Source of the DNA: Thermodesulfobacteriota bacterium
GTDB lineage: Bacteria; Desulfobacterota_D; UBA1144; Nemesobacterales; UBA2774
DNA length: 64,000 nucleotides
Direction of reading: 5' to 3'
Assembly (NCBI GenBank): GCA_965223335.1
Contig: OZ244991.1
Coordinates: forward strand, 256,001-320,000
The position numbers were made by a program, and so were the translations under genes. Under the pieces are notes generated by a model. It saw only the letters and a program-made list of their open reading frames with translations. It was not told the origin of the DNA and did no database searches. Below are positions 10,507 to 54,969 of the stretch, one piece after another (the stretch's first letter is position 1; every line of letters starts with the position of its first letter).

Positions 10507-10810
10507 CGTCTATTTTCCTGTTGCGCTTTGAACCCCTCTTCGGTTTCTTTGTACGGGACCGCTCTTTTTCATCCAAATTATCCCGGATCTCTTTTACGAC
10601 CTCAAATCCCCTTTCCATCATCTTAATCGGAAAATCGCGCACAAACTTCCTACCCTCCTTATCGTCGAGCAGATTCTTTACCCCTTTTATCGCATAACCG
10701 GTGGCGACAACCAACTCGGCAGCCCCCATAATGAAATGCTCGCCTGCTTTTCCGAGATCCTGCAGATCCACATCGCCATTACTATCGTTTTTGGTTCTTT
10801 TAGTCTTCAT
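10499..10810 (-). CDS. Hypothetical protein
   Basis: ATG with GGAGG RBS; sits between priA and glnE on the same strand and overlaps the glnE start. Confidence 0.7.
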   Translation of the reverse strand: MKTKRTKNDSNGDVDLQDLGKAGEHFIMGAAELVVATGYAIKGVKNLLDDKEGRKFVRDFPIKMMERGFEVVKEIRDNLDEKERSRTKKPKRGSKRNRKIDVE

Positions 10811-10884
10811 AACCCCTCCCCTAAACGATGGATTTAACCGCTATACCTAAAATACTACCATATCAAAACAAGCTCTTTAGGCAG

Positions 10885-22678: not shown

Positions 22679-22987
22679 ATGACAGCTAAGATCAGAAATA
22701 CAATCTATGGGCTATTGCTCTTTATCTGTGCCGGGGTTGCTTCACTTATAATATTTACTCTATTTGCAAGATCTGTAAGTTACGAACCCAAGCTCGTTTG
22801 GATACTATGGGTTACCTCACTATTCCCGACTGCTGTATCCGCTGTCATATCTACAGTGATCTATAACTACCTATGCGAATCCCAGAGAAGATGGGTTCAC
22901 ATCCTATGGTATTTTCTAAACCTGTCACTGATAGTAGCTTTTGCACCGTTTATTGCATATATAGTGATGAAAAGCCTATACGGTTAA
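22679..22987 (+). CDS. Small membrane protein
   Basis: Three hydrophobic segments; fills the gap between two minus-strand genes. Confidence 0.6.
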   Translation: MTAKIRNTIYGLLLFICAGVASLIIFTLFARSVSYEPKLVWILWVTSLFPTAVSAVISTVIYNYLCESQRRWVHILWYFLNLSLIVAFAPFIAYIVMKSLYG

Positions 22988-23892
22988 TGCTTAACTCCCG
23001 AGATTTGTTCCAAAGCCAGTAATAGAGCCTGGGTCCCCTTTCGCCCATGCCCCTGTGCTTTTGTAGCAACATATAGATCACGAACTATTGTGAGTCCCGG
23101 CAGTACGATATTCATCGACTCGGCTTCCTTTAACGCTATACCCATATCCTTTATAAAATGCTCTACGAAAAACCCGGGATTGAAATCCCTCTTTATCACC
23201 CTAGGGGCCAAGTTGTCTAACATCCAACAGCCCGCAGCCCCTTTGCTCACCGATTTAAGCATGGTCACAAGATCAAGGCCGGATTTGTAGCCATATAAAA
23301 GCGTTTCACACATCCCGCTCATGATACCAGCAGCCATTATCTGATTACACATCTTTGCGTGCTGCCCAGCCCCTGGTCCCCCCTGATGCACAATGTTTTT
23401 ACCCATAAGCTTTAGTAGAGGCATCACACTGCGCACGGCTTCATCATCACCCCCTACCATGATCGAGAGTGTACCGGCCTGGGCTCCTATATCCCCTCCT
23501 GACACAGGGGCATCAATTGCCTGCACACCAAGGTCCTTGGCTCTATCATATATCTCTTTCGACAACGCAGGCTCCGTAGTAGTCATATCAACTACGATGC
23601 TGCCGGGCTTAATTGTGGTTAGAATCCCCTTCTCTCCCATATAGACCTCACGCACATCTACCGGGAACCCGACTATAGTAAAAACAATGTCCGAATTCTC
23701 TGCCACTACAGCCGGTGAAGCCACCCATTCGGCACCTTGTTTTACCAAATCACGCGTTTTTCTCTTGGTCCTGTTATATACCGTTGTTTTGTAGCCTTTC
23801 TTAACAATGTGGCTGCACATTGCACTGCCCATAACCCCTGTCCCAATCCATCCGATACGTGTTTTAGACGGCCTTACTTTTGTAATGCTCAT
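22984..23892 (-). CDS. NAD(P)-dependent beta-hydroxyacid dehydrogenase (3-hydroxyisobutyrate/tartronate semialdehyde reductase family)
   Basis: IGWIGTGVMG, DAPVSGG, GAGQHAKMCNQ, HFIKDM. AGGAGG RBS before ATG 23892. Confidence 0.93.
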   Translation of the reverse strand: MSITKVRPSKTRIGWIGTGVMGSAMCSHIVKKGYKTTVYNRTKRKTRDLVKQGAEWVASPAVVAENSDIVFTIVGFPVDVREVYMGEKGILTTIKPGSIVVDMTTTEPALSKEIYDRAKDLGVQAIDAPVSGGDIGAQAGTLSIMVGGDDEAVRSVMPLLKLMGKNIVHQGGPGAGQHAKMCNQIMAAGIMSGMCETLLYGYKSGLDLVTMLKSVSKGAAGCWMLDNLAPRVIKRDFNPGFFVEHFIKDMGIALKEAESMNIVLPGLTIVRDLYVATKAQGHGRKGTQALLLALEQISGVKH

Positions 23893-23900
23893 CGTTTTCC

Positions 23901-24026
23901 TCCTAAACAATCACATGATTTCAACAACTTGCGAGTGTGATAAGGTTAAGGTAAAATCGTACTAATTAAAAGCTCCAACCCAAAAAAGTCCCCGTAGCTC
24001 AGCAGGATAGAGCACAGGATTCCTAA
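23901..24026 (+). repeat. attL of island A: 126-bp direct repeat (tRNA promoter + 5' half of tRNA-Arg)
   Basis: Identical to 34424-34549; ends exactly at the anticodon loop TTCCTAA. Confidence 0.95.
23988..24026 (+). pseudogene. 5' fragment of tRNA-Arg(CCT)
   Basis: GTCCCCGTAGCTCAGCAGGATAGAGCACAGGATTCCTAA, then diverges from the tRNA sequence. Confidence 0.9.
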
Positions 24027-24119
24027 GTCGTCATAGACAATATCTCCCCTTCCAACTAGCTGTTTTTATTTAATAATTTTTTTGCAATGGTTTTGATATT
24101 TCACGTCCCAACATCACCC

Positions 24120-24139
24120 CACTAGAAAAACACTAGAAG
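24120..24139 (+). repeat. Tandem CACTAGAA repeats, likely integrase arm-type sites (left end of island A)
   Basis: CACTAGAAAAACACTAGAAG; CACTAGAAAAAC recurs at 34333-34344 next to the integrase. Confidence 0.6.
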
Positions 24140-24286
24140 AACCTGCCTACAAACCATATTCACAACTAGTTTTCCTATTATACATATCCTGACTATGATT
24201 GGAACTCCATCTTAGACCTAATTTTACATTTATGTGGTATAATCGGCTAATATGCTTTATATGATGATTCATTACATAATTGGACC

Positions 24287-25081
24287 ATGAATAATCAAAC
24301 AACAAATCCTGAATCGAGTGATTTAACTCCTAAAAAACACTTTACCGATTTAGATAAAATACAATTATGGATAGTACTTGTTGCCATTTGCTCAATTGTG
24401 TTAGTGTTTTCATTCTATTTTTATCAATTTAGGGGAGAACTTAGCAGTGATCACTCAATATGGGGACAATTCGGGGATTATGTAGCTGGATTACTCGGTC
24501 CATTTTTAAGCTTCATCGTAATAATCATTTTAGTTTATACATTGAGAGCTACCAATGAAACTCTCAGCATATCGAGAGAACAATTAAACCACTCAGAACA
24601 GATGCTAAAAACTATGAAAGATGAACTCACGATTACTAAAGAAGAACTCAAAAAATCAAGAGAAATATCTGAACAACATGTCAAACATCTGAATGACGAA
24701 GCACTTAAAAATGAATTGCATGTAGCAATGAAAGAGTATGATAGTGAATTGCAAAAATTATTTCAACAAAAAGCTAATTTTCCGCGGATGCAAGGAAGTT
24801 ATGAATACTTCTTTTCAACAATAGACGATGATGAAAGTTCACGACTGATTCCTGAAAATTCAAAAGATGTAACCGAGTTAGACAAAAAGATACTCAAAGA
24901 TTTATGTATTGTTCTATTTAAATTGCACCACTTCATGAAACACTATGACGAAATCTCACAAAATAGTGCTATTAACAAGCTGTATCTATTAAAATACAGA
25001 AATTTATATCAAAGACTTGTAGCTAAAAAATATATGGAACCCGGTAAATTGGATTTATTTGAAATTGATAAGAATGATTAA
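24287..25081 (+). CDS. Membrane protein, putative abortive-infection (putAbiC-like N-terminus)
   Basis: Two TM helices around WGQFGDYVAGLLGPFLSF, followed by a coiled coil and a helical domain. Confidence 0.6.
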   Translation: MNNQTTNPESSDLTPKKHFTDLDKIQLWIVLVAICSIVLVFSFYFYQFRGELSSDHSIWGQFGDYVAGLLGPFLSFIVIIILVYTLRATNETLSISREQLNHSEQMLKTMKDELTITKEELKKSREISEQHVKHLNDEALKNELHVAMKEYDSELQKLFQQKANFPRMQGSYEYFFSTIDDDESSRLIPENSKDVTELDKKILKDLCIVLFKLHHFMKHYDEISQNSAINKLYLLKYRNLYQRLVAKKYMEPGKLDLFEIDKND

Positions 25082-25211
25082 TATACACAAGACATGAAAT
25101 AAATAATTGATGCTGATTTATATATATTGAATCATTTCAACTAGTTATAAGCAAATTCACATGGTATATTTACAAATACACAGAAGTAATCAAGAATAAC
25201 ATGAATTGCTT

Positions 25212-25688
25212 ATGAAACACGATGATCTTGTTTTAGAAAATACGATTAGCCTTAAACAATTTCCACCGAAACTGCGTAAATTAGCTAAATATTTATTACA
25301 ATCAGAGAAACCTGTCACGATTTCTCAAGCATGTAGAGAGTTAGGTTTAAACAGAGAGAGTATAGGAACATTGATGTGGCGTTCTAAGCAAAAAGGTAAT
25401 GATTTCAATGAGTTTATAAAGCAACTGGCTAATTCTTATCTAAATGCTAATAGATTAGCTGTTTATGAAAAGCTCGTGGAAGGGGCGGTGTCAAGCGCGT
25501 CTACGTCCCATAATGACAGGAAAACGTATCTACAATTGACTGGAGACATCAAAGCTACCACTGATATCAATGTGAATGTTCTTACTATTGGGGTCAATCA
25601 GGGTACAGGAAGACCAGCCGACATCCCAACAGAAAAAGGAATAGTCGATGCAGCACCACCCAGACCTGAGCAGAACAAATCTAACTAA
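25212..25688 (+). CDS. HTH protein resembling phage terminase small subunit (phBC6A51-like)
   Basis: HTH TISQACRELGLNRESI, then a DRKTYLQLTG helix and a beta-tail DINVNV. This is the architecture seen in TerS proteins. Confidence 0.5.
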   Translation: MKHDDLVLENTISLKQFPPKLRKLAKYLLQSEKPVTISQACRELGLNRESIGTLMWRSKQKGNDFNEFIKQLANSYLNANRLAVYEKLVEGAVSSASTSHNDRKTYLQLTGDIKATTDINVNVLTIGVNQGTGRPADIPTEKGIVDAAPPRPEQNKSN

Positions 25689-25725
25689 CTGTAATTATTA
25701 TATAACCCTTAACATAAGATTATTC

Positions 25726-26133
25726 TTAACCAAGTAGTTCGTCTCGATGCTCAGCAATTCCTAAGAATACATCATAGCATTCATTCACATTAGCTATTAT
25801 TTGATTCATCTTATCTACATGATTCCTTAGATGCTCAAGATCATTGCTGTTTACACCTGTAACTGGGTCAGGAGACACGCGAATTGCTGAATCTATACCA
25901 TTTACAACAGTAAGCTTAAGGTCAGTAAGCTCACTTTCTATCTTGCGTCCGATATTGAAGATACATGTTTTTAGATCAGTATCTTCCATTATCAATCCTA
26001 TATTCTCAGGATCAGGTATTTGACTATAATCATTTTTTAATATAATCATAGCCCTTTCCATACTCTCGGCTCTGATTACATAGTTACAATAACTACCATT
26101 ATCATTCTTAACCTTTGCTAAATATATTCTCAT
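25726..26133 (-). CDS. Hypothetical protein
   Basis: 135-aa ORF with G-rich RBS. Confidence 0.65.
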   Translation of the reverse strand: MRIYLAKVKNDNGSYCNYVIRAESMERAMIILKNDYSQIPDPENIGLIMEDTDLKTCIFNIGRKIESELTDLKLTVVNGIDSAIRVSPDPVTGVNSNDLEHLRNHVDKMNQIIANVNECYDVFLGIAEHRDELLG

Positions 26134-26832
26134 TTACTACCCCCCCTTATTTATGTGATTGATTCGTAGAATAACATAATTAGTTCTCGAAATGAGCACC
26201 CTAAACGTAAGAAAGTTGAATCGATTTTAACCTTAGTCTAAGTTGCAAATAACCACAAACAACGTCCGATATTTTTCTATTATGTAAACTAACAGAATGT
26301 AGGTTCTCTAGTTATTACAGGCGGTTACAGATTGACGTGATTTATCTAGCATTTTATCAACTATGCATATTCAATGATTACAGACAGTTATGATAATAGG
26401 GTATGACATTATCGTCATGGCTTAATGGCATATATCTACCTTTATTCAAGGGGTCACTTTGAACCCCTTCTCCTGCTATTCTAACACCCTGTTTAACAAC
26501 ATGTGTTTGGTGTACTCATATCAAGATGTACTTATACAATGAGTACTTATAGATGATCTAATATTCGGAAACATATTTCTATTTTTATTTGATTTATTTT
26601 TCTCTGCAATGTTTTGGAAATAGTCCTGTCTCTTATGAGTAGGCTTATGTAGTAGGGGGGCCAGGCGAGCATGGGGGGTGGGTGCCAGCGTCTTAGGGGT
26701 CACCTACAAACGATTAAGTCTAAAATAGTCAGGGTCCAATTCTAACGCAAGTCTCTCTATTTTATAGTTTGACATATATTGTCACCGGTGTCGCAATTTG
26801 TCACATAGCGTGGAAACGGTTATATTATTTTC

Positions 26833-27906
26833 GTGCAAAAACTGAAGTTAGTCTCTCTCCTTTCAGGCTATCTTGTTGAACTAAAAGATTCTATCCGAGA
26901 AACAAACCCTGCACTTCCCAGCACATGGCTCGTTGATGAAAATGAATTCATAGAATGGGTTTGTCGTATGGATGCCAAGATGTTGTTGAATCTTTTCGAA
27001 CTTACCGAAAGGCTGATTAGTGAAATTCTGTCCGATGATGAATGGTATATGAGAACAAAACCAATGGCCAGAGTAGATTACTCTATATCAGCTGATTTAT
27101 TGGACTCGCGCTATTTACTCACTATTGCTGATGACAAGAACTGGGACGAATTAAAAACCATTATAAACGTAGGGGGGAAAGGTTCGCCTTTATTAGCTAC
27201 CATCCTGATGCATTTCGTCCTAGGTTGGAGATTGATACTGGAACTTACCGAAAAAGAAACATTAGATCAGCTTTATGTTGTGCTTTCTGACCTATTTGTC
27301 GATGATGTTGAGAGTCGGGAATTGGCCGAAACATCACTCTACAACTTAATTGAATATGCGGAGAACACAGCTAAAAAAGAACTAAAACGGAAGGTTAGAA
27401 TTAAAATTAATAAGCTTAAGAAAGACAATAGTTCTAATAATGACTTTATTTCAGAAGATAACTCCGATGAAGAATTTATGGTAGAAATTGTTAAAGCACT
27501 AATGAGCTCATTTAAGAAATTCCCAACTATTAAAGACAAAATCATAGCTGCAGCTGAAGGGGATAAAGGGATAAAGTATGTCCCCAAACGAATCGCTGAT
27601 CGCTATAAATCCCATCTTGGAAAACCAAGCGAAAAGATGAATGACATCTCACTAGACTCAAATACACAACAAAACACACCGGAATATCAAATAGAATATA
27701 AAAACACCCCCTTTCTGTTATATGAAGAGTTTTCAATCGGTAAAGAATTTAAAGACAAAATCAATAAAATGGACCCAACAGATCAGCAGATTTTAAATAT
27801 GAAGAAAGACGGATACACAATAAGAGAGATATCGGCAGAATTGTCAATTTCAAAAAGCACAGTGAGTGACAGACTGAAAGTAGCACGCAAAATCCTAACT
27901 TCTTAA
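26833..27906 (+). CDS. Protein with C-terminal sigma-70 region 4/LuxR-type HTH
   Basis: DQQILNMKKDGYTIREISAELSISKSTVSDRLKVARKIL; TTGACA element upstream at ~26769. Confidence 0.7.
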   Translation: MQKLKLVSLLSGYLVELKDSIRETNPALPSTWLVDENEFIEWVCRMDAKMLLNLFELTERLISEILSDDEWYMRTKPMARVDYSISADLLDSRYLLTIADDKNWDELKTIINVGGKGSPLLATILMHFVLGWRLILELTEKETLDQLYVVLSDLFVDDVESRELAETSLYNLIEYAENTAKKELKRKVRIKINKLKKDNSSNNDFISEDNSDEEFMVEIVKALMSSFKKFPTIKDKIIAAAEGDKGIKYVPKRIADRYKSHLGKPSEKMNDISLDSNTQQNTPEYQIEYKNTPFLLYEEFSIGKEFKDKINKMDPTDQQILNMKKDGYTIREISAELSISKSTVSDRLKVARKILTS

Positions 27907-28031
27907 ATTCCACCCTTATTCTTTTCCAACTTTAACACACCTTAAGTGGTCAATTTGTTCTTTTGACCACTTTTTTTTCAATTTCAAAAATAAATCCGGA
28001 CAAATCGTAATCTGCAGCGGATATATAGGTT

Positions 28032-28259
28032 ATGGATAAATCCAGAGTCATATTCATGGCTAGTCCGCGTATAGGTTTGACTGTCACTTCTGAAGGTGTA
28101 GAGCAAGTTTTAATCCTAACAGACGGTGGTGAGCATTTAGATCGTACTGCCGGATTCTCACTTTGCTCTTTCTTGGACAGCGAAATAAAAGAGTTTGACA
28201 AAGCGATCAAGAGCAAGCTCAACAAGCTCAGAAGAAATAAAATCGGAATTGTGCAGTAG
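28032..28259 (+). CDS. Small hypothetical protein
   Basis: 75-aa ORF co-oriented with the replication module. Confidence 0.5.
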   Translation: MDKSRVIFMASPRIGLTVTSEGVEQVLILTDGGEHLDRTAGFSLCSFLDSEIKEFDKAIKSKLNKLRRNKIGIVQ

Positions 28260-28276
28260 GTAGGCGAAAAATAAAA

Positions 28277-28296
28277 AGCCCGCTCATAGGCGGGCT
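28277..28296. terminator. Hairpin/intrinsic terminator
   Basis: AGCCCGC-tcatag-GCGGGCT preceded by an A-tract. Confidence 0.55.
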
Positions 28297-28320
28297 GTGT
28301 GCAAAAACTGAATAATATCA

Positions 28321-29055
28321 ATGTGTAAAGTCAGTATACCACGTCCTAAAAATAATAAAAGTGCCGATCGCACTCCAAATAAAAACGGGCTAACATCCCG
28401 TTTTCCTGACGGACTACATAAAGACCATACACACCCCAATTCGCGTAATAGAGATTTCGAATTCCGGTTGCAAAAGGGCCTGCGGCAAGAACAATCTGCA
28501 AAAGAGTATTTCAAAGAGAATTTCGATCTAGATCTCGAAATATTTGGAGTCGGCCGAGAACCGAAGGAAGTGAAAGAGCAGGTTTCAAAACTGCATGACA
28601 ACAGTACTAAGTTTCTTCGCCATCTCCCAGATACTTACTGTGTCATTTCGGATATTGGAACCATTTATGTTGAAGTTAAACATGCACTTAAGAAAACCGG
28701 TAATTTCTCCATAAACTTAGACGAGTTCAACACACAAAACCTTCTACACCAATATCTCGGAGTGAGAATTTTATTTGCTTTTGCACCTTCTGAATCCGAT
28801 AGATTTTGGCGCGGAGACTGGATTCAGAATCTAGACATTAAAACTAGAGCTATAAGAAATAAAGAAGTGCTGGAGAACTTTAATGGTTCTAGGAAACCTT
28901 GCACCCTGATTGAGAAAAAATCCCTGCCCCACCTTGATGATGTAGTGCACAAACTCTTAAATAAACACGAGACAGATGCAAAACTGCAGACTTTTCCAAC
29001 CAATTGGCCAACAGCCTGCCAGAAAATTAGAGCACATAAGGACTTGCAAAAATGA
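28321..29055 (+). CDS. PD-(D/E)XK nuclease-like protein
   Basis: G...E N-terminal helix and RHLPD...IYVEVK catalytic pattern. Confidence 0.65.
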   Translation: MCKVSIPRPKNNKSADRTPNKNGLTSRFPDGLHKDHTHPNSRNRDFEFRLQKGLRQEQSAKEYFKENFDLDLEIFGVGREPKEVKEQVSKLHDNSTKFLRHLPDTYCVISDIGTIYVEVKHALKKTGNFSINLDEFNTQNLLHQYLGVRILFAFAPSESDRFWRGDWIQNLDIKTRAIRNKEVLENFNGSRKPCTLIEKKSLPHLDDVVHKLLNKHETDAKLQTFPTNWPTACQKIRAHKDLQK

Positions 29056-30266
29056 CACCAGGCCTTTTCCCCGAATTTTTGAATCTTCACTATCGCAATA
29101 TAGATAAGAATTTTTACTTCGCAAATCTGATAGAACTAGATGGAAAATCCATTTGTAAAATATATCCAACCAGAACAGGCGCGTGGAAAGGTCGCAACAT
29201 ATCAGAGATTGCAACATACCTTGGTGTGGGGCTGTTGAATGACAAGAGCAAAAGAAGGACGCGAGACAACATAAGCCATGTTATGTGTTGCTTTGTGGAT
29301 CTAGATGGATGCACAACCTTGGATGCTGTAAAATTTAGAATCCAAGGGGCAGGACTTCCAAAACCAACTATTATAGAAACTAGTCCGGGTAGATTCCATG
29401 TAAAATCCTATCTACGAGTCCCAGTAAGGACTTCGGGCAAAGAGTTCCAATTTTGGAAGAAGACTCAAAGCGCATATACCTGGGCATTTAAGGATTTAGG
29501 GGCCGACCTAAATATACAACACGATACGACACGAATCCTTAGAAACGAATTCGCAACCGAGATATATAACGAAAAACACAGGGAAAGGCATTTGGTTAAA
29601 GTGCACCAGGTAGGAGAGCCTGTTAGTCTTAGTGACATTTATACACCCCTTTGCGATGCGGGATACATAGAAGAGAGAAAATGTACCCCATGGCATATTT
29701 CAGAAAAAAAGTTGCGAATGTTCTTCATGCAAAACCCCGAATGGTCAGGAACTCAAAAAGAACTATCTCAGCTAACTGGCATACCACTTAGAACTGTAAA
29801 AGCCCTTCTTTACAAGATGAGAAAAGCAGAACTATTCGATGAAACAATTATAGGAAAGGGGGAAAATAGGCACATCAAGTACAGATTCAAGCCATACTTT
29901 ATGAGATACACCCCCCCTACAAACTTTAAAGGGCATGAAAAAAGATTAGACTTAGTTAAACAGTTAGGGGGGCAGGAGTGTAATAAGGCTAGTAGAGCAA
30001 TTTTGAAGTACATAAACGAAAAAATCCCCCCAGGAAGTAGAAACAACGCTACTTTTGTAGCCGGAGTCGGCTTATTAGAACTTTCTCAGGGGAGAATTAC
30101 GGAAAGTGAAGCGATTAGTACGTTAAAACCAGGTTTTGATCTATCCAATACAAATGACAGTAGCTTTACCTGGAGTCAATTTTGCGCAACTATACGCTCC
30201 GCCCTTAAGCCAGGTCGCGAATTCCGCTTCAAAGAATCAGCTCTAAGAGCATGGAGCCTAATATGA
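29052..30266 (+). CDS. AEP-superfamily primase/RepB-like replication protein with HTH and PriCT-like C-terminus
   Basis: FVDLD, IETSPGRFH, RILR (RepB primase motifs); TQKELSQLTGIPLRTV HTH; GSRNNATF primase C-terminal motif. Confidence 0.8.
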   Translation: MTPGLFPEFLNLHYRNIDKNFYFANLIELDGKSICKIYPTRTGAWKGRNISEIATYLGVGLLNDKSKRRTRDNISHVMCCFVDLDGCTTLDAVKFRIQGAGLPKPTIIETSPGRFHVKSYLRVPVRTSGKEFQFWKKTQSAYTWAFKDLGADLNIQHDTTRILRNEFATEIYNEKHRERHLVKVHQVGEPVSLSDIYTPLCDAGYIEERKCTPWHISEKKLRMFFMQNPEWSGTQKELSQLTGIPLRTVKALLYKMRKAELFDETIIGKGENRHIKYRFKPYFMRYTPPTNFKGHEKRLDLVKQLGGQECNKASRAILKYINEKIPPGSRNNATFVAGVGLLELSQGRITESEAISTLKPGFDLSNTNDSSFTWSQFCATIRSALKPGREFRFKESALRAWSLI

Positions 30267-30425
30267 CACACAAAAACACCCCTGCAACACAACATGACAG
30301 CTATAAAAGCCGTTCATACGCCATAACAAACTACAAGTACGTATATTTTGACCTGTTCAAAGAGTATAGAACAGTTATGTGGCAACGTGCTTATATATAA
30401 CAAACAACCTACAAATTGATCTATT

Positions 30426-31199
30426 TTAGTTACATGGACGGACTGCACGAGCTCCAACGAAATTTTCGTTGGTCTTGTGTGCATGACCACAATGTACACT
30501 ATTTCCCCTACAGCTCCATGTATGCGTTGACAAATTAGGATGGGGTGTACTTGTCCAATGAATATGATCAGTTGATGAAAGACCTGGAAAACTTATTTGG
30601 TTACCTTGAAGACTGAAATCTCCTAGACTTTGAAATACTCTAATATTAGGAATGCACCAATCTCGATAACCAGCGAGACCACACAGTCCACTACCAATAC
30701 CACTGCAATCTGCATCCGTATTACAAGGAGTAGTACCATCTCCATCGCAGTTATTGTTTATAGCATCTAAGAATTCCGTAAACAACGTACCATCTGGGTT
30801 AGGTAAAGTAGCACTCCATTTGTATACATTATCTTTGTCATGAAGACCCCCATTATCATCTTTCTTCTCCCACATGTAACCTGTATTGTTATCTGTAAAG
30901 GTGCCGTCTCCATTATCAGTAAAACTTAATGCAACACCATGCCCTGAAAGTCCATATGCATCAGGATTACTAAACCCATCCCCCGGAAATGTTTGACCTG
31001 GGTTAGCTTCACACTCAGCTAAGTCAACATAACATTCATCTAAATCAAAGTTGCATATATTCAGATTTTCCGCACATTCAGGTAAACCACCCTTTGGCGG
31101 GAACTCAAATGGTGATTTTGCAGTTGAGAATGAAACCGCTACTGTTAAATGTAAAATGCAGATAACAAAAAAGATAATAAGTGCTTGAAGTAGTCTCAT
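30426..31199 (-). CDS. Secreted DUF1566 (Lcl C-terminal, C-type lectin-like) domain protein
   Basis: Signal peptide; FTDNGDGTFTDNNTGYMWEK, AGYRDWCIPN, HWTST, ARAVR. Confidence 0.85.
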   Translation of the reverse strand: MRLLQALIIFFVICILHLTVAVSFSTAKSPFEFPPKGGLPECAENLNICNFDLDECYVDLAECEANPGQTFPGDGFSNPDAYGLSGHGVALSFTDNGDGTFTDNNTGYMWEKKDDNGGLHDKDNVYKWSATLPNPDGTLFTEFLDAINNNCDGDGTTPCNTDADCSGIGSGLCGLAGYRDWCIPNIRVFQSLGDFSLQGNQISFPGLSSTDHIHWTSTPHPNLSTHTWSCRGNSVHCGHAHKTNENFVGARAVRPCN

Positions 31200-31388
31200 A
31201 ATATTCTCTCCTTTTTACAAGCAGATTTAACTACCTGATAATACGTATTATATAAAATTAGATAATTAATTGATACTAGACTATGGTTTATTTTTTCTGG
31301 AAAGAATTAATACTAAAGTATTGGTACTCGATCATAAACGATCTCTAACAAGTTCTGAAATCTTTAGAGTTATGAGACTATTTTATGA

Positions 31389-31410
31389 TTGAATCATCCC
31401 GACATCGGGA
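31389..31410. repeat. Left arm of inverted repeat flanking the TA pair
   Basis: TTGAATCATCCCGACATCGGGA; the reverse complement of 33181-33202 is TTAAATCATCCCGACGTCGGGA (20/22). Confidence 0.75.
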
Positions 31411-31787
31411 TTTGCATATTATGTAAATTCAAAGAATTTCTCCTGTACTGAAAAACGCTAGTTGTAGTCATAATAAATGTATTTTATTATATTTATTAAT
31501 TAGACGGTTTATCGGGTTTGGGACTAGTTATTTGATGTATCTATAATAATCACACGGATACAAGAAAATACATTACTACATTTGCTATCTGACATTACAT
31601 CAAAGAATAATCAACACCAACAAATGGGTCTAGTGGTTGTGAACTTTCCGTAATTTCAGACGTTAGTCAGATTACAGAAAATGGATTATTAATACAATTT
31701 TGTATTATAATTTTTATTACTGACTAGAATCTAAAGATTGAAGATTGAAAAAGATGTCGATCTGTCCTGTCTGGGGTATGGGATTAC

Positions 31788-32501
31788 ATGATTGATAAAA
31801 ACATCGTACTATCGCAAATTTTAAAACAATGTGCTGAAGTAGGTACAAATAGCATTGGTAGAACCAAATTAGTCAAATTGGTTTACTTAACAGAATACGA
31901 ATATTATAAACAAACAAGAAAAAGACTCACTACTCTTAATTGGATATTTCACAAGTATGGTCCATATGCATTTGAACTATCTACCGATAAAATCGATTTT
32001 ATAGAAACTGAACATAAAGAACTTGATGCTATTCGAACAGCTAAGTTATTAAGTATTAGCAAAGAAAATAATACAGCAGGTCAGAATGATCCAATTGATA
32101 TTAGAGTAGAATCAATCATTAAAGACGAAGTGAAAAAGTGGCACGATTCAGATCTTAAAGAATTACTCAACTTTGTATACCATCACACTGAACCCATGCA
32201 AGATGTTCATCGGGGTGACATCTTAGATTTCTCAAGTATTAGTGAACCATATACACGAAAAACAAATCCGCTTTCTAAAAAGAAATTAGAAGAAATAAAA
32301 ACCAAACTTCGGAAAACATCTAAAAAAGAACCTTCAAAAGCCAAACCATTATATCCATTGCCCAGACTTACCCAAGAATGGCAAATGAAAATTCAAAAAG
32401 CTTTAGAATCTGAATTTGAAGATGAGCAAGAATTTAAGCTCAAAGATGCAAAATTAAATATTCCGATTGGAAAACTTAAAAATGCATTCGAAGAAGAATG
32501 A
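31788..32501 (+). CDS. Panacea (DUF4065/SocA-like) antitoxin
   Basis: GRTKLVKLVYL...LTTLNWIFHKYGPY and LLNFVYHHTEP motifs. Confidence 0.82.
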   Translation: MIDKNIVLSQILKQCAEVGTNSIGRTKLVKLVYLTEYEYYKQTRKRLTTLNWIFHKYGPYAFELSTDKIDFIETEHKELDAIRTAKLLSISKENNTAGQNDPIDIRVESIIKDEVKKWHDSDLKELLNFVYHHTEPMQDVHRGDILDFSSISEPYTRKTNPLSKKKLEEIKTKLRKTSKKEPSKAKPLYPLPRLTQEWQMKIQKALESEFEDEQEFKLKDAKLNIPIGKLKNAFEEE

Positions 32502-33178
32502 TTAGAGATTATTATTCCAAATCTAATAAATGGTATGATCACGATGAAAGATTAGAATTGAAAGTTGGACGTGTGGGATGGGCACCAATACTATTTACTC
32601 CTGCAGAGACTGAATTAAAAAAACTAGAGTTTGACAAAAATGGTACGGTAATTGGCACCCAAGATGTTAATCGATCAAACTCATTTAACAACTCACATGA
32701 TCCATTCGTAACACCATTCAGACTAGAAACAAATGAAGAAGTATTATGTATAAAAGCTAAAAAGAGACCTGTTTTATTATTAACACAGGCTGATCCCGGC
32801 ATAAAAAAAATAATCTCTAACAGCAGACAACTAGATAGAGACTTAAGGTTAGGTAAAGTTTGGCTTATACTGCCGATCAGAAGTTACAAAGATGATCATT
32901 TACAGGAATTAGTAGAGTCATTATACTTGCCTGTTTTCTTTCCTATGATTGGGAATAAAGCATGTCCTAAAAATCATGGCTATGTTAGGTTTGATAAAGT
33001 ACAACCCATTCATCAGACACTTATAGAGCCATCGCATTATACCATGTCTGAAGAGTGCCTAAACATTTTAAAAGAAGCTTATATTTCTTATACTACAAAT
33101 AAACAATACGGTGATACTTATCCATATTTACGAGATCTATTTATGGAATCTTTAAAAGAAGCTAAAATAATTATTTGA
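32498..33178 (+). CDS. PemK/MazF-like toxin (PanT candidate)
   Basis: AKKRPVLLL, LILPIRS, YVRFDKVQPI; 4-bp overlap with the Panacea gene. Confidence 0.65.
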   Translation: MIRDYYSKSNKWYDHDERLELKVGRVGWAPILFTPAETELKKLEFDKNGTVIGTQDVNRSNSFNNSHDPFVTPFRLETNEEVLCIKAKKRPVLLLTQADPGIKKIISNSRQLDRDLRLGKVWLILPIRSYKDDHLQELVESLYLPVFFPMIGNKACPKNHGYVRFDKVQPIHQTLIEPSHYTMSEECLNILKEAYISYTTNKQYGDTYPYLRDLFMESLKEAKIII

Positions 33179-33180
33179 CT

Positions 33181-33202
33181 TCCCGACGTCGGGATGATTT
33201 AA
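33181..33202. repeat. Right arm of inverted repeat flanking the TA pair
   Basis: Contains the perfect palindrome TCCCGACGTCGGGA, 2 bp after the toxin stop. Confidence 0.75.
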
Positions 33203-33215
33203 ATCTTTACATACA

Positions 33216-34277
33216 CTATTTCTCTACTAGCTTCAGTTTTGGTTCATTAAGCCATGACAATTTATTAACCGCTTTTGCTTTATGTTCATCACTTAGATGA
33301 CTGTATATCATAGTAGTAGTTATGCTTTGATGCCCTAACAATTCTTTCACTGTGGGAAGATCAACCCCATTCATAACGAGATGACTAGCAAATGTGTGTC
33401 TAAGAACATGTGGAGTTACATTCTTTAGCCCTGCCCTTTTGACAGCTTTAGAGAAACTATTCTTAAAGGACTTAATCATTTGACCGTTAGGGGCACAAAA
33501 GAAGTATTCTCTTTGATATTTTTTTCTGCGAGATGCTTTCCCTAATGGAGATATATAGTTGTCTCTTAAATAGAGTAGCGTTGTCTTCAATTCTTCATTC
33601 ATAGAGATTGTATAGTAATTGTTGCCTTTAGTATTCATAACCACTAAGACTGATCTATCGAAATCGGCATACTCTAATTTAAGTTCTCTTAGCTGTTTAG
33701 ATCTTAATCCTGTATTACGAAGGACTAATAGTATGTATTTCATCCACAAGGTAGCAGAATCAAGTAAATGATTTATCTCTATATTGGTAAGATAGCGCGG
33801 GGGTTTTCTGAACTCCTTTAGTTTCTTGATAGTCGGCAGAGCATTTATATAGTGCCAGTCTATATCTTTCTTAAGCATTACAGACAGGCAGGTTAGTTCT
33901 ATATTGATAGTTCTATTTTTGCGCCCTTCCCTTTGCCGTTTGGACTTATAATCTTCTATCTCTTTATTATCTATTTGTTGAAGCTGTAAGTCTCCAAAGT
34001 GATTAGACAAGGCTACTAGGCTAGTAATATCCCTTTCCCATGAAGCTTGAGCTTTATTTGCTTTGGAGTAATTTAGGTATTCCTGCGAGAACTCACTAAA
34101 TGTTATCGTCTTTGGTTCTATAACTCCTTTTGCATTATATTCGTAATCTAATTCCAGTTTTCTTAAATACTGTTTTGCATCCTTATATGAAACTCTACCG
34201 ATCCTTTTCCATTTGGTCTTACCATTAACATAAATTAACGCATAATAGGTCTTACCTTTCTTGGTTAATCCGGCCAT
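33216..34277 (-). CDS. Tyrosine recombinase/integrase of island A
   Basis: N-terminal arm-binding beta domain; TGLR, HVLRHTFAS, LLGH, TMIY catalytic motifs. Confidence 0.95.
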   Translation of the reverse strand: MAGLTKKGKTYYALIYVNGKTKWKRIGRVSYKDAKQYLRKLELDYEYNAKGVIEPKTITFSEFSQEYLNYSKANKAQASWERDITSLVALSNHFGDLQLQQIDNKEIEDYKSKRQREGRKNRTINIELTCLSVMLKKDIDWHYINALPTIKKLKEFRKPPRYLTNIEINHLLDSATLWMKYILLVLRNTGLRSKQLRELKLEYADFDRSVLVVMNTKGNNYYTISMNEELKTTLLYLRDNYISPLGKASRRKKYQREYFFCAPNGQMIKSFKNSFSKAVKRAGLKNVTPHVLRHTFASHLVMNGVDLPTVKELLGHQSITTTMIYSHLSDEHKAKAVNKLSWLNEPKLKLVEK

Positions 34278-34320
34278 AATTAGCTCCTTTTTCGCTTAGC
34301 CGGAAGGGTTGTTGCAATTA

Positions 34321-34352
34321 CAACTAGAAATTCACTAGAAAAACTCTAGAAA
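34321..34352 (+). repeat. Three CTAGAAA repeats, likely integrase arm-type sites (right end of island A)
   Basis: CAACTAGAAATTCACTAGAAAAACTCTAGAAA, 11-12 bp period. Confidence 0.6.
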
Positions 34353-34423
34353 TCTGACTTTTTAGGTGTGCTGAATGGACTTGACCTTAACTCTGAGAGT
34401 AAAATAAATCTTTAAGCAAATTG

Positions 34424-34549
34424 TCCTAAACAATCACATGATTTCAACAACTTGCGAGTGTGATAAGGTTAAGGTAAAATCGTACTAATTAAAAGCTCCA
34501 ACCCAAAAAAGTCCCCGTAGCTCAGCAGGATAGAGCACAGGATTCCTAA
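34424..34549 (+). repeat. attR of island A (126-bp direct repeat)
   Basis: Identical to 23901-24026. Confidence 0.95.
34452..34480 (+). promoter_or_regulatory. sigma70-type promoter of tRNA-Arg
   Basis: TTGCGA-17 bp-TAAAAT, also present at 23929-23957. Confidence 0.65.
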
Positions 34550-34587
34550 TCCTGGGGTCAGAGGTTCGAATCCTCTCGGGGACGCCA
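34511..34587 (+). tRNA. tRNA-Arg(CCT)
   Basis: 77 nt; acceptor stem GTCCCCG/CGGGGAC, anticodon stem CAGGA/TCCTG with loop TTCCTAA, T-loop GGTTCGAATCC, encoded CCA. Confidence 0.97.
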
Positions 34588-34611
34588 ATATTTTCAATGA
34601 GTTACTTCACA

Positions 34612-35691
34612 TCATTGTCCCTTAATCATTTCAATGTCAGTGGATTTGTCAGTTAATGATTTGGAGTTGTACTGATCTAGATATTCAACTGCATCAAATA
34701 ATGAACTTTCCGGATGACTGTATCTCATAGTCATTTTTAAATCACTGTGTCCAAGAATCCTACTCACAGCTACAATAGATGCCCCAGCTTCAATCATTCT
34801 AGTGGCTGCAGTATGTCTTAAATCGTGGAACCTTAAACCTTCTATTCTTGCTTTTTGACATGCTCTCCCGAATGCTCCCTTGATTGAATCATGATATTTA
34901 TATGGCAATCCATTACAGGATAAGAACACATATTTACTCCCTCCACCTTTAAGCTTTTGCTCTAACAGGACTGATCTTAATCTTGAATTAATAGGTATCC
35001 GTCTTGTTTTCTTACTCTTCGTATTTGTTTGATCAATAGTAATGACATTGTTCTCAATGTCTATATTGGACCATTTCAAAGTGAGTATCTCTGATTTCCT
35101 CATCCCAGTTTGAAGTGCTGTTAGTAAAATGGGTTTTAAATATTGGTTAGAAGATAAAAGCAATCTAATTTCTTCATCAATTGAAAGAATTCTTTCTTTA
35201 ATATTATTCTCCTGTAACAAGCCTGATATGGTTACTGGATACTCACCGTAATACTTTTTCCACCTCTTAGCAAGATTGTAAATCTGTCTCAATGTAGATA
35301 GTTCACGGTTTACTGTTGCGGGTTTAACTTCTTTTAAGCGAAGTTCCTTAAAATCATCGATGTCCTTTGGTGTTATAGATGATAGTTTTCTTTCACCATA
35401 CATCTCTAATAACTTGTACATGCTATATCGATACCTATCCCATGATCTTCTCTGCAAAATATCTTTTACATATTTTATGTATTCATCACTAAAGTCCTTT
35501 AATTTGGGGATATTAGCTTCCAACATATCGTATTGGCCAAGTTTGACTCCACGTTCTTTGTCTAGGAGGATTGATCGGGCCATGGATTTAGTCATCATTC
35601 CCTTTTTACCTATCGATTCTCGGCGCATTTTGCCATTGATATTACGATACTCGATAACCCATGAATTACCCCTCAGGAACACACTACCCAT
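34612..35691 (-). CDS. Tyrosine recombinase/integrase of island B
   Basis: TGMRKSE, RFHDLRHTAAT, ILGH, TMRY. TGTCAGT direct repeats (34635, 34647) lie in its 3' end. Confidence 0.95.
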   Translation of the reverse strand: MGSVFLRGNSWVIEYRNINGKMRRESIGKKGMMTKSMARSILLDKERGVKLGQYDMLEANIPKLKDFSDEYIKYVKDILQRRSWDRYRYSMYKLLEMYGERKLSSITPKDIDDFKELRLKEVKPATVNRELSTLRQIYNLAKRWKKYYGEYPVTISGLLQENNIKERILSIDEEIRLLLSSNQYLKPILLTALQTGMRKSEILTLKWSNIDIENNVITIDQTNTKSKKTRRIPINSRLRSVLLEQKLKGGGSKYVFLSCNGLPYKYHDSIKGAFGRACQKARIEGLRFHDLRHTAATRMIEAGASIVAVSRILGHSDLKMTMRYSHPESSLFDAVEYLDQYNSKSLTDKSTDIEMIKGQ

Positions 35692-35895
35692 TTATTTAGA
35701 CCTCCTTTTTTTAGATTCAGGCAACGAAGGTTCTATAATCTCGTACCCCTCCCGCTTCATCACTTCACGAATCCAACCTCTGACTACCTCAGAGGCTGTC
35801 ATCATATTATTCTCCGCATACTTTGCTAGGAATTCATATTCTGTAGGATGAAGCCAAACTTGAAAGATCTTATTTCGAAATCGTTTCTCAGCCAC
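35692..35895 (-). CDS. Small ribbon-helix-helix-like regulator upstream of integrase B
   Basis: KIFQVWLHPTEYEFLAKYAENNMMTASEVVRGWI beta-alpha-alpha pattern; the stop abuts the integrase ATG. Start uncertain. Confidence 0.55.
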   Translation of the reverse strand: MAEKRFRNKIFQVWLHPTEYEFLAKYAENNMMTASEVVRGWIREVMKREGYEIIEPSLPESKKRRSK

Positions 35896-36628
35896 TGTAA
35901 TGATAATATACTTACAAATATGTTTTGTCAATATGATATTGTTGTAATATTTAAGTATTTGTCGCCTTCCTAAATACAGACATCTTTTCAAAAAATATAC
36001 ATAGCTCTAGTTTGAGTTTATTGAGTTGGAATTACACAATAATTCAGAAATTTCTTCTACCACCAGAAATCGCCAAATAGTTACGCAGGATTAATTAGGA
36101 TTAATTGCTAGTAAGCACTGTTAATAACATAATATTGTATGTCTATATACACTAAATTAATAGTTCTTGACATACATAATCTTATTTGCTATTTTCGATT
36201 TAGAGCAAAGGGCAATAGTTGGTTTTGATTTCTGATTGATTTTTGATGGGTAAATCGTGTTAGAGGATGGGGTATCTTTCTAACCGTTAATTCTGAGTCG
36301 ATTATACAAACAGTTATATTCTGATCTACTTACTCAACCTACTCATTCCTACAGTTTTCAAACTATAATACACCTCTCTTACTGCCGGTTTACTGATCTA
36401 TACTGGAGGCAGTAATATGTTGCAGTACATTTTGTACCCCTCAGCTCTGTTGAGATCAACATTGTCTCTACCAGTTGATTCAATTAAGAATCTTCAACTC
36501 ACCTTCACTAAAACCAAGTTAATTAGTGTTCTGCATATTCATAATCCATTTTCTACAAACTTTATAAATCCAATAAACAATGTTTTAGATCAGCAAACTA
36601 TCTGCTATTACCTGGAGGGGAATGAAAA

Positions 36629-39600
36629 ATGAACTATCAAAATACTAGGTCAATAATCACACTACTGTGTCTATTTTTCATGGTAATGATGATACCCCGA
36701 TATGCGTTTGCAATTGGTGAGAACTACGATGAGTGGGGGTTTAAGAAGAACAAAACTTATATGCAGTTCTCTCCAGAGGAATATGTCAACCTGTTCTCGG
36801 GCAACTTAGTTTTAACACATACCGATGTTGTACTCCCAGGCAATGGCGGATTGGATCTAAAGATTCAAAGAACTTACAACAGCAAGATTTTCTCGGAATT
36901 GACTAACGTAGGTTTCACAATCTCCGGATCAGTATTTGGGAATTTGGGAGTAGGTTGGGAGATGCATTTCGGTCGCATCAACACATTAGGTTCAATTTTA
37001 CAAATCCAACATCCTATTTTAGTTGAGATGCCAGATGGATCCATTAAAACAGCCTTCACGAATGATCAGTCAAATATTAGTTCGAACATCGCCAGTAGTT
37101 ATGTAACAGAAGACTTCTGGTTCATTGATGGTTTCGATCACAACTCTGATCAGGTAATTGACGAGTATGTGATGAAATTGCCCGATGGCACAACATATAC
37201 ATTTGATCATAGAGTATCTAACTCACTAACATACAATAATTATTATGTGACATCCATTGATGATACAAATGGAAATACTATCACATTTGAATACTATGAC
37301 TGTTGTGGTTTTACAACAACTCCAGATACAGGAACCATAGGTTCATGTTCTCCCCATGGCCCAAATGATACTACATCCCGCCATCTTAAAAAAATTACGG
37401 ACAGTGTCGGTCGAGAAATACATTTCACGATGGATAATGCTACATGTCATGAAAATGCTATAAAGACTATTGATGTTTTTGGGGACATATATACCTACAA
37501 CTATTCTACAGTACTGGGTGTACCAGGAGGGGATAATCATGATGGCGGATCGGGGAAACTATTACTCGGAGTAGATCCCCCTGTCGGGCCGAGTTGGGAT
37601 TATGATTATTTAGCGCAACCACTTGACGGACATCCCGATGGCGAGTTAATCCAGATTACACATCCTTCGGGTGGTACCATAGACTATACATACGAAACAT
37701 TTGATCTAGAACTTTATGACCAATCAGGTAGTGGGAATACGGGTAATTTTAAATTCCGCGCTCTAACTTCACGTACAACATCTGGTCCTAATATAACAAA
37801 TCCAGGCACATGGACTTTTGATTACCATCCTACAGAAACCACCGATAAAACAACTGTTACTGATGCATGTGGGAACAAAGAGGTATACAACTTTTTCGGT
37901 CTTAGAACTGGTTCGTTTGGTGGTCTATGGAAAATCGGATTACTCGATTATAAACAAACGTTAGATGCTGCAGATAATCCAGTAGAGACAACCACTAATG
38001 TATGGAATTCTTATCAGATCTCGAATGAGGGGCAAGACAATATATCGTCGCCGTCTATAAACGGAACATATTTACCCCTACTTATTTCACAGGATATATC
38101 ACGGGATGGCAAAAATTATAGTACTACATTTACATATAATGAATTTTACGACTCCCCCACACAGATAATGGAAACAGGGGAGTTCACAAGAACTACTGAT
38201 ATTACATATTTTGAAAATTTAAGCTCAAACATTTTCGGCAAACCCGCCAGCACAACTGTTAATCAGAGTGGTGAATCGAAAGTAATAACCAACTCCTACG
38301 ACCCTGCAGGCAACCTAACGATGGAAAACCAATACGGTGTAATCACAGAGTATGGGTATTTCCCCGATGGCAATCTAAACTGGGAAAAGAACGCCAGGAA
38401 CTTCTATACCGTCTTTGATCTATATGATAATGGCCTTGCTACTGTCTTGAAATATGGCGCGACAGACAATGCAGGCGGATCAGCTATTTACACAGAAAAT
38501 AGGTCTATTAACTGGGAAGGAACTATAGCAAGCCATACAGATGGTAAAGGCAATACCACTTCATTCACATATGATGGGATCAATAGACTCACCCAAATTA
38601 CTCCACCACCAAGCGGCGAGGCTGTGACCGATATTGTATATGATGATACGAATGGACGATTTGATACTGTATCAAAAGGTAATTCGTCTCTACACACCAC
38701 GTATGATGGATTCGGCAGAAAAATAGGTACGCAAACTGCCGCGGGCGTACAAACGGAAATTCAATACGACGTATGCGGTAGAAAATCATACGAATCATTA
38801 CCCTACGATACCAACACACCAAACACCGGCAACAGCTACACATACGATGCACTCGACAGACTCAAGTCTATAACGCGACCCGATAGCACAGTTGTAAGCT
38901 ATACGTATTCAAGCGATGCTGACGGCAGCAAAATCACAGTCAACAACGAAAACAACCAAAACACGACTATGCATTATAAGGCATTCGGCGATCCGGATGA
39001 TAAGAGATTAGTTAAAGTCACAGATGCACTCACCAATGCTACAGGATACACATACGATCTATTAGGGAATATTGTGCAGGTAGGCTCACCTAATGGCACC
39101 TCACGGTCTTACTCGTACAATGATAAAAACTTCTTAGTGTCCGAGACTCATCCCGAGAGCGGAACAACTTCTTATTCACATGACGAGATTGGAAATGTGA
39201 CTTCAAAGATGAACGCGAAGTCAGAAACGACTAGCTACGCCTATGACCCTGTCAACAGACTTACCAACGTCAATAACCCGGGAGCTGAACCCGATGTTGA
39301 TTATGGATATGACTTTGCTAATAACAGAACATCGATGGTAGGGATACACCCCAACGTAGAACAGACTTATAACTACACGTATACATACGATGCCTCCAAT
39401 AGGCTTACGAACCAGGACGTTACCGTAGGCAGCGATGTCAGCTATAGCGTGGACTATGCATATGACGTTAAAAACAATGTTACAAGCATTATTTATCCAT
39501 CCGGTGAAACGGTCAATTACGACTATGACGCTCAAAATAGAATACTCAATATCTTAGATGGGACTAGTAACAACATATCTACCAATTTTAATTACATCGC

Positions 39601-50293: not shown

Positions 50294-50306
50294 GAGGAGA
50301 AGAGCC

Positions 50307-50570
50307 ATGAATCCATTCAAACTTCATGACCAGTTAGACAAAATAACAACGAGACATGAACTAGCTGAATTCATACTGAGCTTAAGAGAAGATCTAATCA
50401 ACAACCCTTCAGAATGGGAAAATCCTAATTTAGAAAGATTTTTAGAATCAATGTCAGGATGGATTGTAGATATGCATGGATATTTTCAAAATATAGGCGA
50501 ACCATTTCCAGAAGAACTAACATGGGAGCTTTTTGGTAGAATACTCTTAGCTGCTCGGAGTTATGAATGA
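50307..50570 (+). CDS. Putative cognate immunity protein (DUF7660-like)
   Basis: 87 aa directly after the toxin with an AGGAG RBS; WENPNLERFLESM..W...TWELFGRILLAARSYE pattern seen in small genes following polymorphic toxins. Confidence 0.75.
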   Translation: MNPFKLHDQLDKITTRHELAEFILSLREDLINNPSEWENPNLERFLESMSGWIVDMHGYFQNIGEPFPEELTWELFGRILLAARSYE

Positions 50571-50799
50571 TATATCAATAGATTTACCTCTAGATTTGGT
50601 GTCAAGATATTAAGCATACGAAGATCCAGATTCAGGCTATAGTTGTTGAGTTCGGTGTCCATCTAAAATCAGAAACAACTACCTAAAAGATTAGGTCAAT
50701 TTATCATTTAACAAATACAATAAAACCATGAACGTTTAACCCATCTGATATTCCAGTAAACTATATTGATAGAGATTTTGAGGTGCTACCTTCTAAAGA

Positions 50800-51381: not shown

Positions 51382-51502
51382 AGTCAGCATCTAGTAATTG
51401 AGTTATGGATACCACTATCCCTCCAAAACCATAAAACAGAAACCCCGTCGACATATTAGTTCCACGACAACAGACTTCCGAGAATCCAATTGAAATCATC
51501 CC

Positions 51503-51539
51503 ATCCTAGGGTCAGAGGTTCGAATCCTCTCGGGGACGC
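51503..51539 (+). repeat. attR of island B: 3' fragment of tRNA-Arg
   Basis: ATCCTAGGGTCAGAGGTTCGAATCCTCTCGGGGACGC versus tRNA 34549-34585, one mismatch. Confidence 0.93.
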
Positions 51540-51564
51540 GAATTAATCATTCCAGAATAGTATT

Positions 51565-53897: not shown

Positions 53898-53914
53898 AGA
53901 AAGGAGTAATAGAA

Positions 53915-54952: not shown

Positions 54953-54969
54953 AGAAAGGAGGAATAGAA

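Follow-up and report, generated by a model that had tools for sequence, protein, structure and literature searches.

How an integrative element can take the place of the promoter region and front half of a tRNA gene and leave an intact gene behind is the question raised by a locus of a Thermodesulfobacteriota bacterium (GenBank assembly GCA_965223335.1, contig OZ244991.1, positions 256,001 to 320,000 of the forward strand; this whole stretch of 64,000 nucleotides (nt) is called the window below, and all positions refer to it). An element of 10.4 kb, here termed island A, lies between two copies of a 126-nt direct repeat, the second of which runs into the gene for tRNA-Arg(CCT). An earlier reading of the bare sequence, referred to here as the original prediction, had described an island that duplicates the promoter and 5' half of its target tRNA. 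The answer reached in this study is that IntA, the tyrosine integrase encoded by island A, very probably carried out recombination between the anticodon stem-loop of tRNA-Arg(CCT) and a circular element, whose attachment site (attP) carried the upstream region of the gene together with its front half.

The two repeat copies (23901-24026 and 34424-34549) start 10,523 nt apart and are 100% identical by string equality, and a perfect repeat of 126 nt within 64 kb is far beyond chance. The sole tRNA gene in the window is tRNA-Arg(CCT) at 34511-34587 on the plus strand, with the anticodon at position 35 (ARAGORN); Rfam RF00005 matches 34511-34584 with 69.5 bits, and neither of the tRNA fragments in the window was matched. 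The right repeat copy consists of 87 nt of upstream sequence (34424-34510) followed by tRNA nt 1-39 (34511-34549), and the identity stops on the final base of the 7-nt anticodon loop (tRNA nt 33-39), which is bordered in the intact gene by the stem arms CAGGA and TCCTG; the bases right after the block differ at once between the two copies. In the left copy, the tRNA bases form a displaced 5' fragment at 23988-24026, which has the same plus-strand orientation as the intact gene and in which no tRNA is called. The left copy can be read as the identity block of attL, composed of the 87 upstream nt of the host and tRNA nt 1-39, and the right copy, also on the plus strand, as that of attR, in which the 87 nt and tRNA nt 1-39 borne by the element are joined to the 3' part of the tRNA. 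The original prediction had given the repeat as perfect, as made up of 87 bp of upstream DNA and tRNA nt 1-39 ending at the anticodon loop, and as leaving the intact tRNA downstream of the island, and on all of these points it agrees with the string comparison and the ARAGORN coordinates. This is the configuration of the 5'-fragment islands in the Islander catalogue, namely a 5' fragment upstream of an intact tRNA gene on one replicon, with a tyrosine integrase gene within an interval that may span 2-200 kb and here spans 10.5 kb; the block bounded by the 7-nt loop and its flanking stem arms falls into the anticodon-loop sublocation class.

The DNA between the copies also differs in composition from its surroundings, since the guanine-plus-cytosine (GC) content is 0.357 in 24027-34423 vs 0.460 in the 23.9 kb to the left; the circular form of island A (24027-34423 plus one 126-nt block) would have a size of 10,523 bp. 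The left flank contains housekeeping genes, namely those for PEPCK, GlnE, PriA, a Znu-type transporter and a dehydrogenase. The last of these, an NAD-binding 3-hydroxyisobutyrate/6-phosphogluconate dehydrogenase-like gene (22984-23892, minus strand; Pfam NAD_binding_2, 1.1e-54, and NAD_binding_11, 2e-34), is divergent from the tRNA, with its start codon 8 nt left of the repeat. A homologue with 68% amino acid (aa) identity over 294 aa occupies the same divergent position in locus L075 of a Thermodesulfobacteriota metagenome-assembled genome (MAG; GC 0.395), where it adjoins a front-half fragment of the tRNA and no tRNA; the fragment breaks after nt 42 and is followed by unrelated DNA with direct repeats of its own, which suggests that the same site is occupied there by a different element. 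Because the dehydrogenase homologue stands beside the tRNA front half in L075 as well, the adjacency of dehydrogenase and tRNA appears to be ancestral and the left copy in the window to be that of the host. Conservation between the window genome and L075 does not extend to the 87-nt upstream region; thus, the copy carried by the element matches the host of the window specifically.

The gene intA (33216-34277, minus strand) is a single intact open reading frame (ORF) of 353 aa, situated 147 nt outside the attR block and reading away from the tRNA. Its product matches Pfam Phage_integrase (PF00589, 4.2e-30, profile 5-172 of 172) plus Int_N, as well as the phrog_1 integrase family (1.4e-62), and its relatives in the PDB are XerA/XerC-like proteins and the HP1 integrase. 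The catalytic domain contains the Arg, His-x-x-Arg and Tyr positions conserved in tyrosine recombinases, which we take to be the motifs TGLR, HxxR and Y.H read from the translation rather than residues aligned individually to a solved structure. The family of IntA comprises 972 proteins at E<=1e-20, the best of them 70% identical; the named relatives come from Thermodesulfobacteriota, Desulfobacterota and Ignavibacteriales, and matches in phage records reach at most 30% identity. A third integrase of the family (P0092, 349 aa), 41% identical to IntA, is found on the same 2,667,483-bp contig as IntA.

Candidate binding sites for this integrase were found at the ends of island A. Pairs of the motif ACTAGAA in an 11-nt phase occur three times in the 64 kb (24121-24138, 34323-34340 and 34334-34351), all at the ends of the island; 0.02 such pairs would be expected, none of 100 shuffles reached three, and Tandem Repeats Finder independently gives period-11 arrays at both places. 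Taken singly, the motif shows no enrichment in the window (8 found vs 9.3 expected), so the phased clustering is the meaningful signal. These repeats are putative arm-type sites of IntA. The candidate arm on the integrase side (P; 34323-34351, plus strand) holds three phased copies (11 nt) of an ACTAGAA-like motif, at a distance of 73-101 nt to the left of the block, and the candidate far arm (P'; 24054-24171, plus strand) holds two ACTAGAA copies at 24121-24138 as well as variants that contain CTAG at 24054 and 24164. In the joined circle, intA would be followed by the arm repeats, then, after a spacer of 72 nt, by the 126-nt block, whose far end holds the anticodon stem and loop, and last by the second arm, whose repeats would lie ~95-112 nt past the anticodon loop; this is the same arrangement as in a lambda-type attP.

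A consensus scan predicts a sigma-70-like promoter, TTGCGA-17-TAAAAT, on the plus strand of both repeat copies (23929-23957 in the left and 34452-34480 in the right), with 9 of 12 consensus positions matched. The predicted -10 element ends 30 nt ahead of the mature 5' end of the tRNA and is thereby well placed. In addition, a leftward promoter-like site on the minus strand (34447-34420) is aimed at intA, with its -35 hexamer in the 126-nt block and its -10 hexamer straddling the left edge of the block; in the left copy, the same -35 hexamer faces the dehydrogenase gene instead.

In the mechanism proposed here, the circular form of island A would insert by means of its own IntA, which presumably binds the phased repeats, and strand exchange would take place in the 7-nt anticodon loop of tRNA-Arg(CCT), at cleavage points that we infer to lie within the loop. 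The attP would carry the front of its target, that is, 87 nt of upstream sequence with the predicted promoter and tRNA nt 1-39, in a block placed between the integrase-side arm sites and the core. Integration would leave the promoter and front half of the host as a dead fragment beside the dehydrogenase gene (attL) and would join the copy of the element to host nt 40-77, giving an intact tRNA whose predicted promoter, presumably active, lies 10.5 kb from the original one (attR). Since the element carries the part 5' of the crossover, it must also supply the transcription signals. That an integrase made an island of 5' polarity, as had been proposed, is supported by a full-length intA beside the tRNA, by candidate arm sites at the ends only, and by the low GC content, the syntenic flank and the loop-bounded block. 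Another island, described below as island B, would have entered the same tRNA from the other side with the usual 3' polarity, and island A itself may still be mobile.

Other genomes were compared through a scan of genome contigs with the 39-nt tRNA front half, a pattern that catches 5' fragments only; it gave at least 118 loci, mostly from Alphaproteobacteria. Among the 118 listed loci, 109 continue into the tRNA 3' half, 2 are cut by contig ends, and 7 are 5' fragments (L036, L042, L075, L081, L091, L109 and L112) that break at nt 39-43 and in which ARAGORN calls no tRNA. On one contig, and on the same strand, the L091 fragment precedes the intact L032 tRNA by 33.9 kb, with a common block from -3 to +43 only, and L109 and L100, which belong to one MAG, have a common block from -2 to +42. 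These pairs bear on the statement in the original prediction that such an element must carry a host-specific copy of the promoter: some promoter is needed, but the blocks of L032/L091 and L100/L109 reach only 2-3 nt upstream, and an exact copy of the host promoter is therefore not obligatory. At L063, a fragment of nt 1-34 lies 1164 nt upstream of its own tRNA. Upstream flanks of at least 5 kb were available for 58 loci and downstream flanks of that length for 54; in this comparison, a 3' fragment within 10 kb occurs at L007 only. When the ORFs of the 80 loci of at least 2 kb were searched with a home-made profile, 18 integrase ORFs appeared in 14 loci; an integrase ORF lies no more than 500 nt downstream of an intact tRNA in six loci, which is the usual geometry, and no more than 1 kb upstream in one, L057. 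The L057 integrase is 37% identical to IntA and lies 1 kb ahead of tRNA-Arg(CCT), on a contig that stops short of any second junction. On this rough comparison, with a pattern catching 5' fragments only, front-half polarity at tRNA-Arg(CCT) is not much rarer than the usual one.

Directly behind the tRNA lies island B (34588-51543, plus strand, ~17 kb), of the usual 3' type, which the original prediction had missed. Its tyrosine integrase gene, intB (34612-35691, minus strand; Pfam 4.1e-35), has its stop codon 24 nt past the end of the tRNA, and IntB is 30% identical to IntA (BLASTP, 1e-30). The right end of the island is marked by a displaced tRNA 3' fragment at 51504-51543 on the plus strand, which comprises nt 40-77 plus 2 nt and is identical at 38 of 40 positions. 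The anticodon-loop bases are missing from this fragment (2 of 7 match) and nt 44 is mismatched, so the crossover of island B would lie further 3', probably in the T loop region. It can be seen that tRNA-Arg(CCT) has an island on either side and that the two, of opposite polarity, make use of separate parts of the gene and need not be in competition. A small ORF upstream of intB (35692-35991, minus strand) has a homologue upstream of the L057 integrase (L057 240-2697; ~51% over 63 aa, tblastx); this pair of small ORF and integrase, which in L057 stands upstream of the tRNA and points at it, may serve either side of a tRNA.

Several points weigh against recombination of a circular island A by IntA at the anticodon loop. 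As far as sequence goes, identical copies leave undecidable where in the block the crossover took place and which copy came from the element and which from the host, and the first bases after 24026, which form the right core half of the attP, are no mirror of the anticodon stem. The promoter scan was at chance level, with 1 site found vs 2.2 expected from shuffles; the -35/-10 promoter that the original prediction had placed in the repeat is thus present in both copies as a 9/12 match and retained as predicted only. Among the at least 118 listed loci of the front-half scan, neither the genome of the window itself nor a close relative without the island, and hence no empty chromosomal site (attB), was found, and an intact tRNA partner in the same genome is present for only 3 of the 7 fragments among these loci and for none of the other 4. 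L042 may be an insertion that does not restore the tRNA gene: a P4-like integrase (10001-11323 in tRNA orientation; Arm-DNA-bind_3, Phage_int_M and Phage_integrase) follows the fragment after ~157 nt and is co-oriented with it. The co-orientation at L042 means that transcription from the host tRNA promoter would enter the integrase gene.

L036 of N. soli, one of the 3 fragments with an intact tRNA in the same genome and considered as an attL partner of L020 on account of a shared 444-nt block (89.6%) ending at nt 39, was rejected and also counts on that side. The 3 kb upstream of L020 are syntenic with 7 other loci of the Roseomonas group, and L036 shares just the last ~404 nt; its positions 9597-10039 are a shortened copy (-404 to +39, 89.6%) of the tRNA-Arg locus of N. 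soli, including the 3' end of the upstream gene, and L036, on another contig than L020, adjoins a VapE-like gene, tRNA-Met and mnmA. It is read as a captured block carried in mobile DNA and not as the junction of an island at tRNA-Arg(CCT). The copy in L036 ends at nt 39, like the repeat in the window.

Among the other explanations, it is possible, though on the whole unlikely, that a real past insertion has left island A as a fixed and immobile remnant. No excisionase was recognised by Pfam, PHROGs, NCBIfam or small-ORF searches, a further point against the reading with IntA and a circle, and the first three found no transfer or packaging genes in the cargo. Immobility is at odds with repeats that are still 100% identical, an integrase ORF that is intact with a full catalytic domain, and intact arm repeats, which together indicate an element that is recent or maintained. 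Recent capture or entry may explain why the repeat copy is perfect, and so may gene conversion from one direct repeat to the other.

It is improbable that island A entered by RecA-dependent homologous recombination of the Campbell type over the 126 nt, or by integrase action elsewhere in the block. The perfect block would be long enough for RecA, and the crossover cannot be placed from the sequence, but the block ends exactly at the final loop base, and independent fragments in 7 other loci break at nt 39-43 despite differing upstream blocks, some of only 2-3 nt. The integrase and the arm-type repeats are present as well, and the anticodon loop is the commonest sublocation catalogued in the available part of the Islander report (PMC4383910).

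Very improbable, too, is a single composite element of 27.5 kb (24027-51503) that brought its own complete tRNA gene and promoter and inserted between host nt 39 and 40, so that the left 5' and right 3' fragments would be the halves of a destroyed host tRNA for which the element supplies a replacement. Such an insertion would explain why the fragments abut between nt 39, the last base of the 5' one, and nt 40, the first of the 3' one, with no shared bases and with just the 2 of 7 loop positions matching on the left side of the right fragment; phages that destroy their tRNA target and bring a replacement are named in the available part of PMC10865867. However, there are two integrases, each adjoining its own junction; the ACTAGAA arm repeats bracket 24027-34423 only; and the GC content is unlike between island A (0.357) and the island B part (0.432). 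A 39/40 split offers no overlap bases, which a conservative tyrosine recombinase requires at both junctions, and a more 3' crossover of island B would agree with the mismatch at nt 44. In replacement-tRNA elements, the target is not restored at the junction; at this locus, the intact tRNA itself would be the attR junction.

That the repeat is an assembly artefact or a plain segmental duplication without a mobile element has nothing but the perfection of the repeat in its favour and is barely credible, as each copy has unique flanks on both sides, an integrase and DNA of foreign composition lie between them, the 2,667,483-bp contig of IntA argues against a fragmentary assembly, and the same arrangement occurs in other genomes.

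Insertion of island A by IntA at the anticodon loop places it among systems that have been described. In the available part of the Islander report (PMC4383910), 3919 islands are counted: a 3' fragment marks 3760 of them and a 5' fragment 159, and 2083 are centred on the anticodon; these figures bear out the view in the original prediction that the opposite orientation is the rarer one. The 5'-fragment islands of that catalogue share with island A an intact tRNA gene, an upstream cognate 5' fragment in the same orientation, a tyrosine integrase between them and a crossover centred on the anticodon. The block of island A reaches -87 and is 100% identical; the available part of the Islander report gives counts and describes neither the upstream reach of the shared block nor the carriage of a promoter.

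It has been reported that the pTN3-like archaeal integrases of Thermococcales use the 5' half of a tRNA gene as attB and, as with island A, the intact tRNA is restored and the original promoter is no longer used (PMC8371274, in the part available); the same source says that use of the 5' half is seldom met in bacteria. The pTN3-like systems differ in that the integrases are "suicidal", their own gene containing the att site, and the integrase promoter is said to drive the tRNA. In contrast, intA stays whole outside the attR block and points away from the tRNA, with the copy of the native upstream region between both. Similarly, the islands of clade I.d at arg2 in Klebsiella pneumoniae (10.1101/2020.11.02.365908) insert on the upstream side of an arginine tRNA gene, at its 5' end, and clade I.d is the sole upstream-inserting integrase clade in the available part of that survey; the site there consists of the 5' acceptor stem, D stem and D loop, whereas island A uses the anticodon loop in a different host phylum. 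The dusA-specific islands (PMC4482086, as far as the source is available) resemble island A in that the 5' end of the target gene is replaced by sequence of the element, with putative -35/-10 elements upstream afterwards, but the target is protein-coding and the sequence brought in is new instead of an exact host copy.

Classical anticodon-loop integration with 3' polarity, insofar as sources were available, has in common with island A a tyrosine integrase, a 7-nt loop overlap, core sites in the stem arms and, as candidates in island A, arm-type sites in the attP; island A has the mirror polarity and carries the part 5' of the crossover. Island A belongs to a rare, already catalogued class, of which it is a tidy example, and brings no new principle. 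It provides a clean bacterial example of the rare mirror polarity in which both candidate arms, the core, the integrase and the block with the predicted promoter can be read together. An element of 5' polarity has to carry transcription signals as well as the front half of the gene, and an exact host copy is one solution among others. Islands of opposite polarity at one tRNA mean that a single-copy tRNA gene can be replaced almost wholly by mobile DNA and still be intact, which is of relevance to island-finding software and to the interpretation of tRNA gene phylogenies.

A broader idea, which we regard as rather doubtful, treats the anticodon loop of tRNA-Arg(CCT) as a hotspot of 5' integration across phyla, about as frequent at this gene as integration of ordinary polarity, with attPs that arose from captured upstream DNA of hosts. 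If it were true, the expressed tRNA would be a three-part mosaic to which island A contributes the promoter and nt 1-39, the host a short middle part and island B the 3' end, and the captured tRNA promoter would also read outward into the first genes of island A, in both the circular and the integrated state.

The cargo of island A (24287-33178, genes on both strands) is mostly of unknown function according to Pfam, PHROGs, NCBIfam and PADLOC. It includes a helix-turn-helix (HTH) protein at 25206-25688, for which an HTH match is weak and below the cut-off, a sigma-70 region 4-like regulator at 26833-27906, a possible primase-like replication protein of 404 aa at 29052-30266, a secreted Lcl_C-domain protein at 30426-31199 on the minus strand, and a SocA/Panacea antitoxin-like gene with a downstream gene of unknown function at 31788-33178. 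The primase-like assignment comes from Atlas neighbours only: the nearest Atlas clusters carry RepB_primase/PriCT/AEP with a score of 0.95, which is a lead only, and the protein has no PDB match. No capsid, terminase, other virion or packaging, or conjugation families were found in island A by Pfam, PHROGs (over 15 ORFs), NCBIfam and PADLOC, and island A thus lacks, in the Pfam and PHROGs searches, the virion or packaging genes of a prophage or phage satellite; PADLOC gave weak matches only on the cargo, and a megablast comparison of island A DNA with plasmids gave no match. Island A looks like a small integrative, possibly self-replicating element rather than a prophage. A GC-rich hairpin in two 22-nt copies (31389-31410 and 33181-33202; an inverted pair, 91% complementary) brackets the SocA/Panacea-like two-gene cassette, and the second copy, which lies between the convergent ends of this cassette and intA, resembles a two-way terminator or a cassette boundary.

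Meanwhile, most of island B is taken up by a single ORF of 4554 aa at 36629-50293, an RHS-repeat protein that starts with DUF6531, contains many repeats of ~83 aa with Cys residues as well as RHS repeats, and has an Ntox10 toxin-like end. It is followed at 50800-51381 by an ORF resembling the Tpt1/KptA RNA 2'-phosphotransferase, and the two look like an interbacterial polymorphic toxin locus. Just beyond the right repeat of island B, 51565-51719 is a 155-nt copy, 85% identical, of the end of the RHS core (49506-49660), and it is followed by an ORF at 51731-52285 that matches only the C-terminal part of an amine oxidase; the RHS copy may be an orphan rhs remnant or part of an older island, and the right boundary region may be composite. 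Further to the right, 52854-56028 contains three tandem paralogous genes with a spacing of ~1055 nt, two of which score for the IPTL-CTERM sorting motif.

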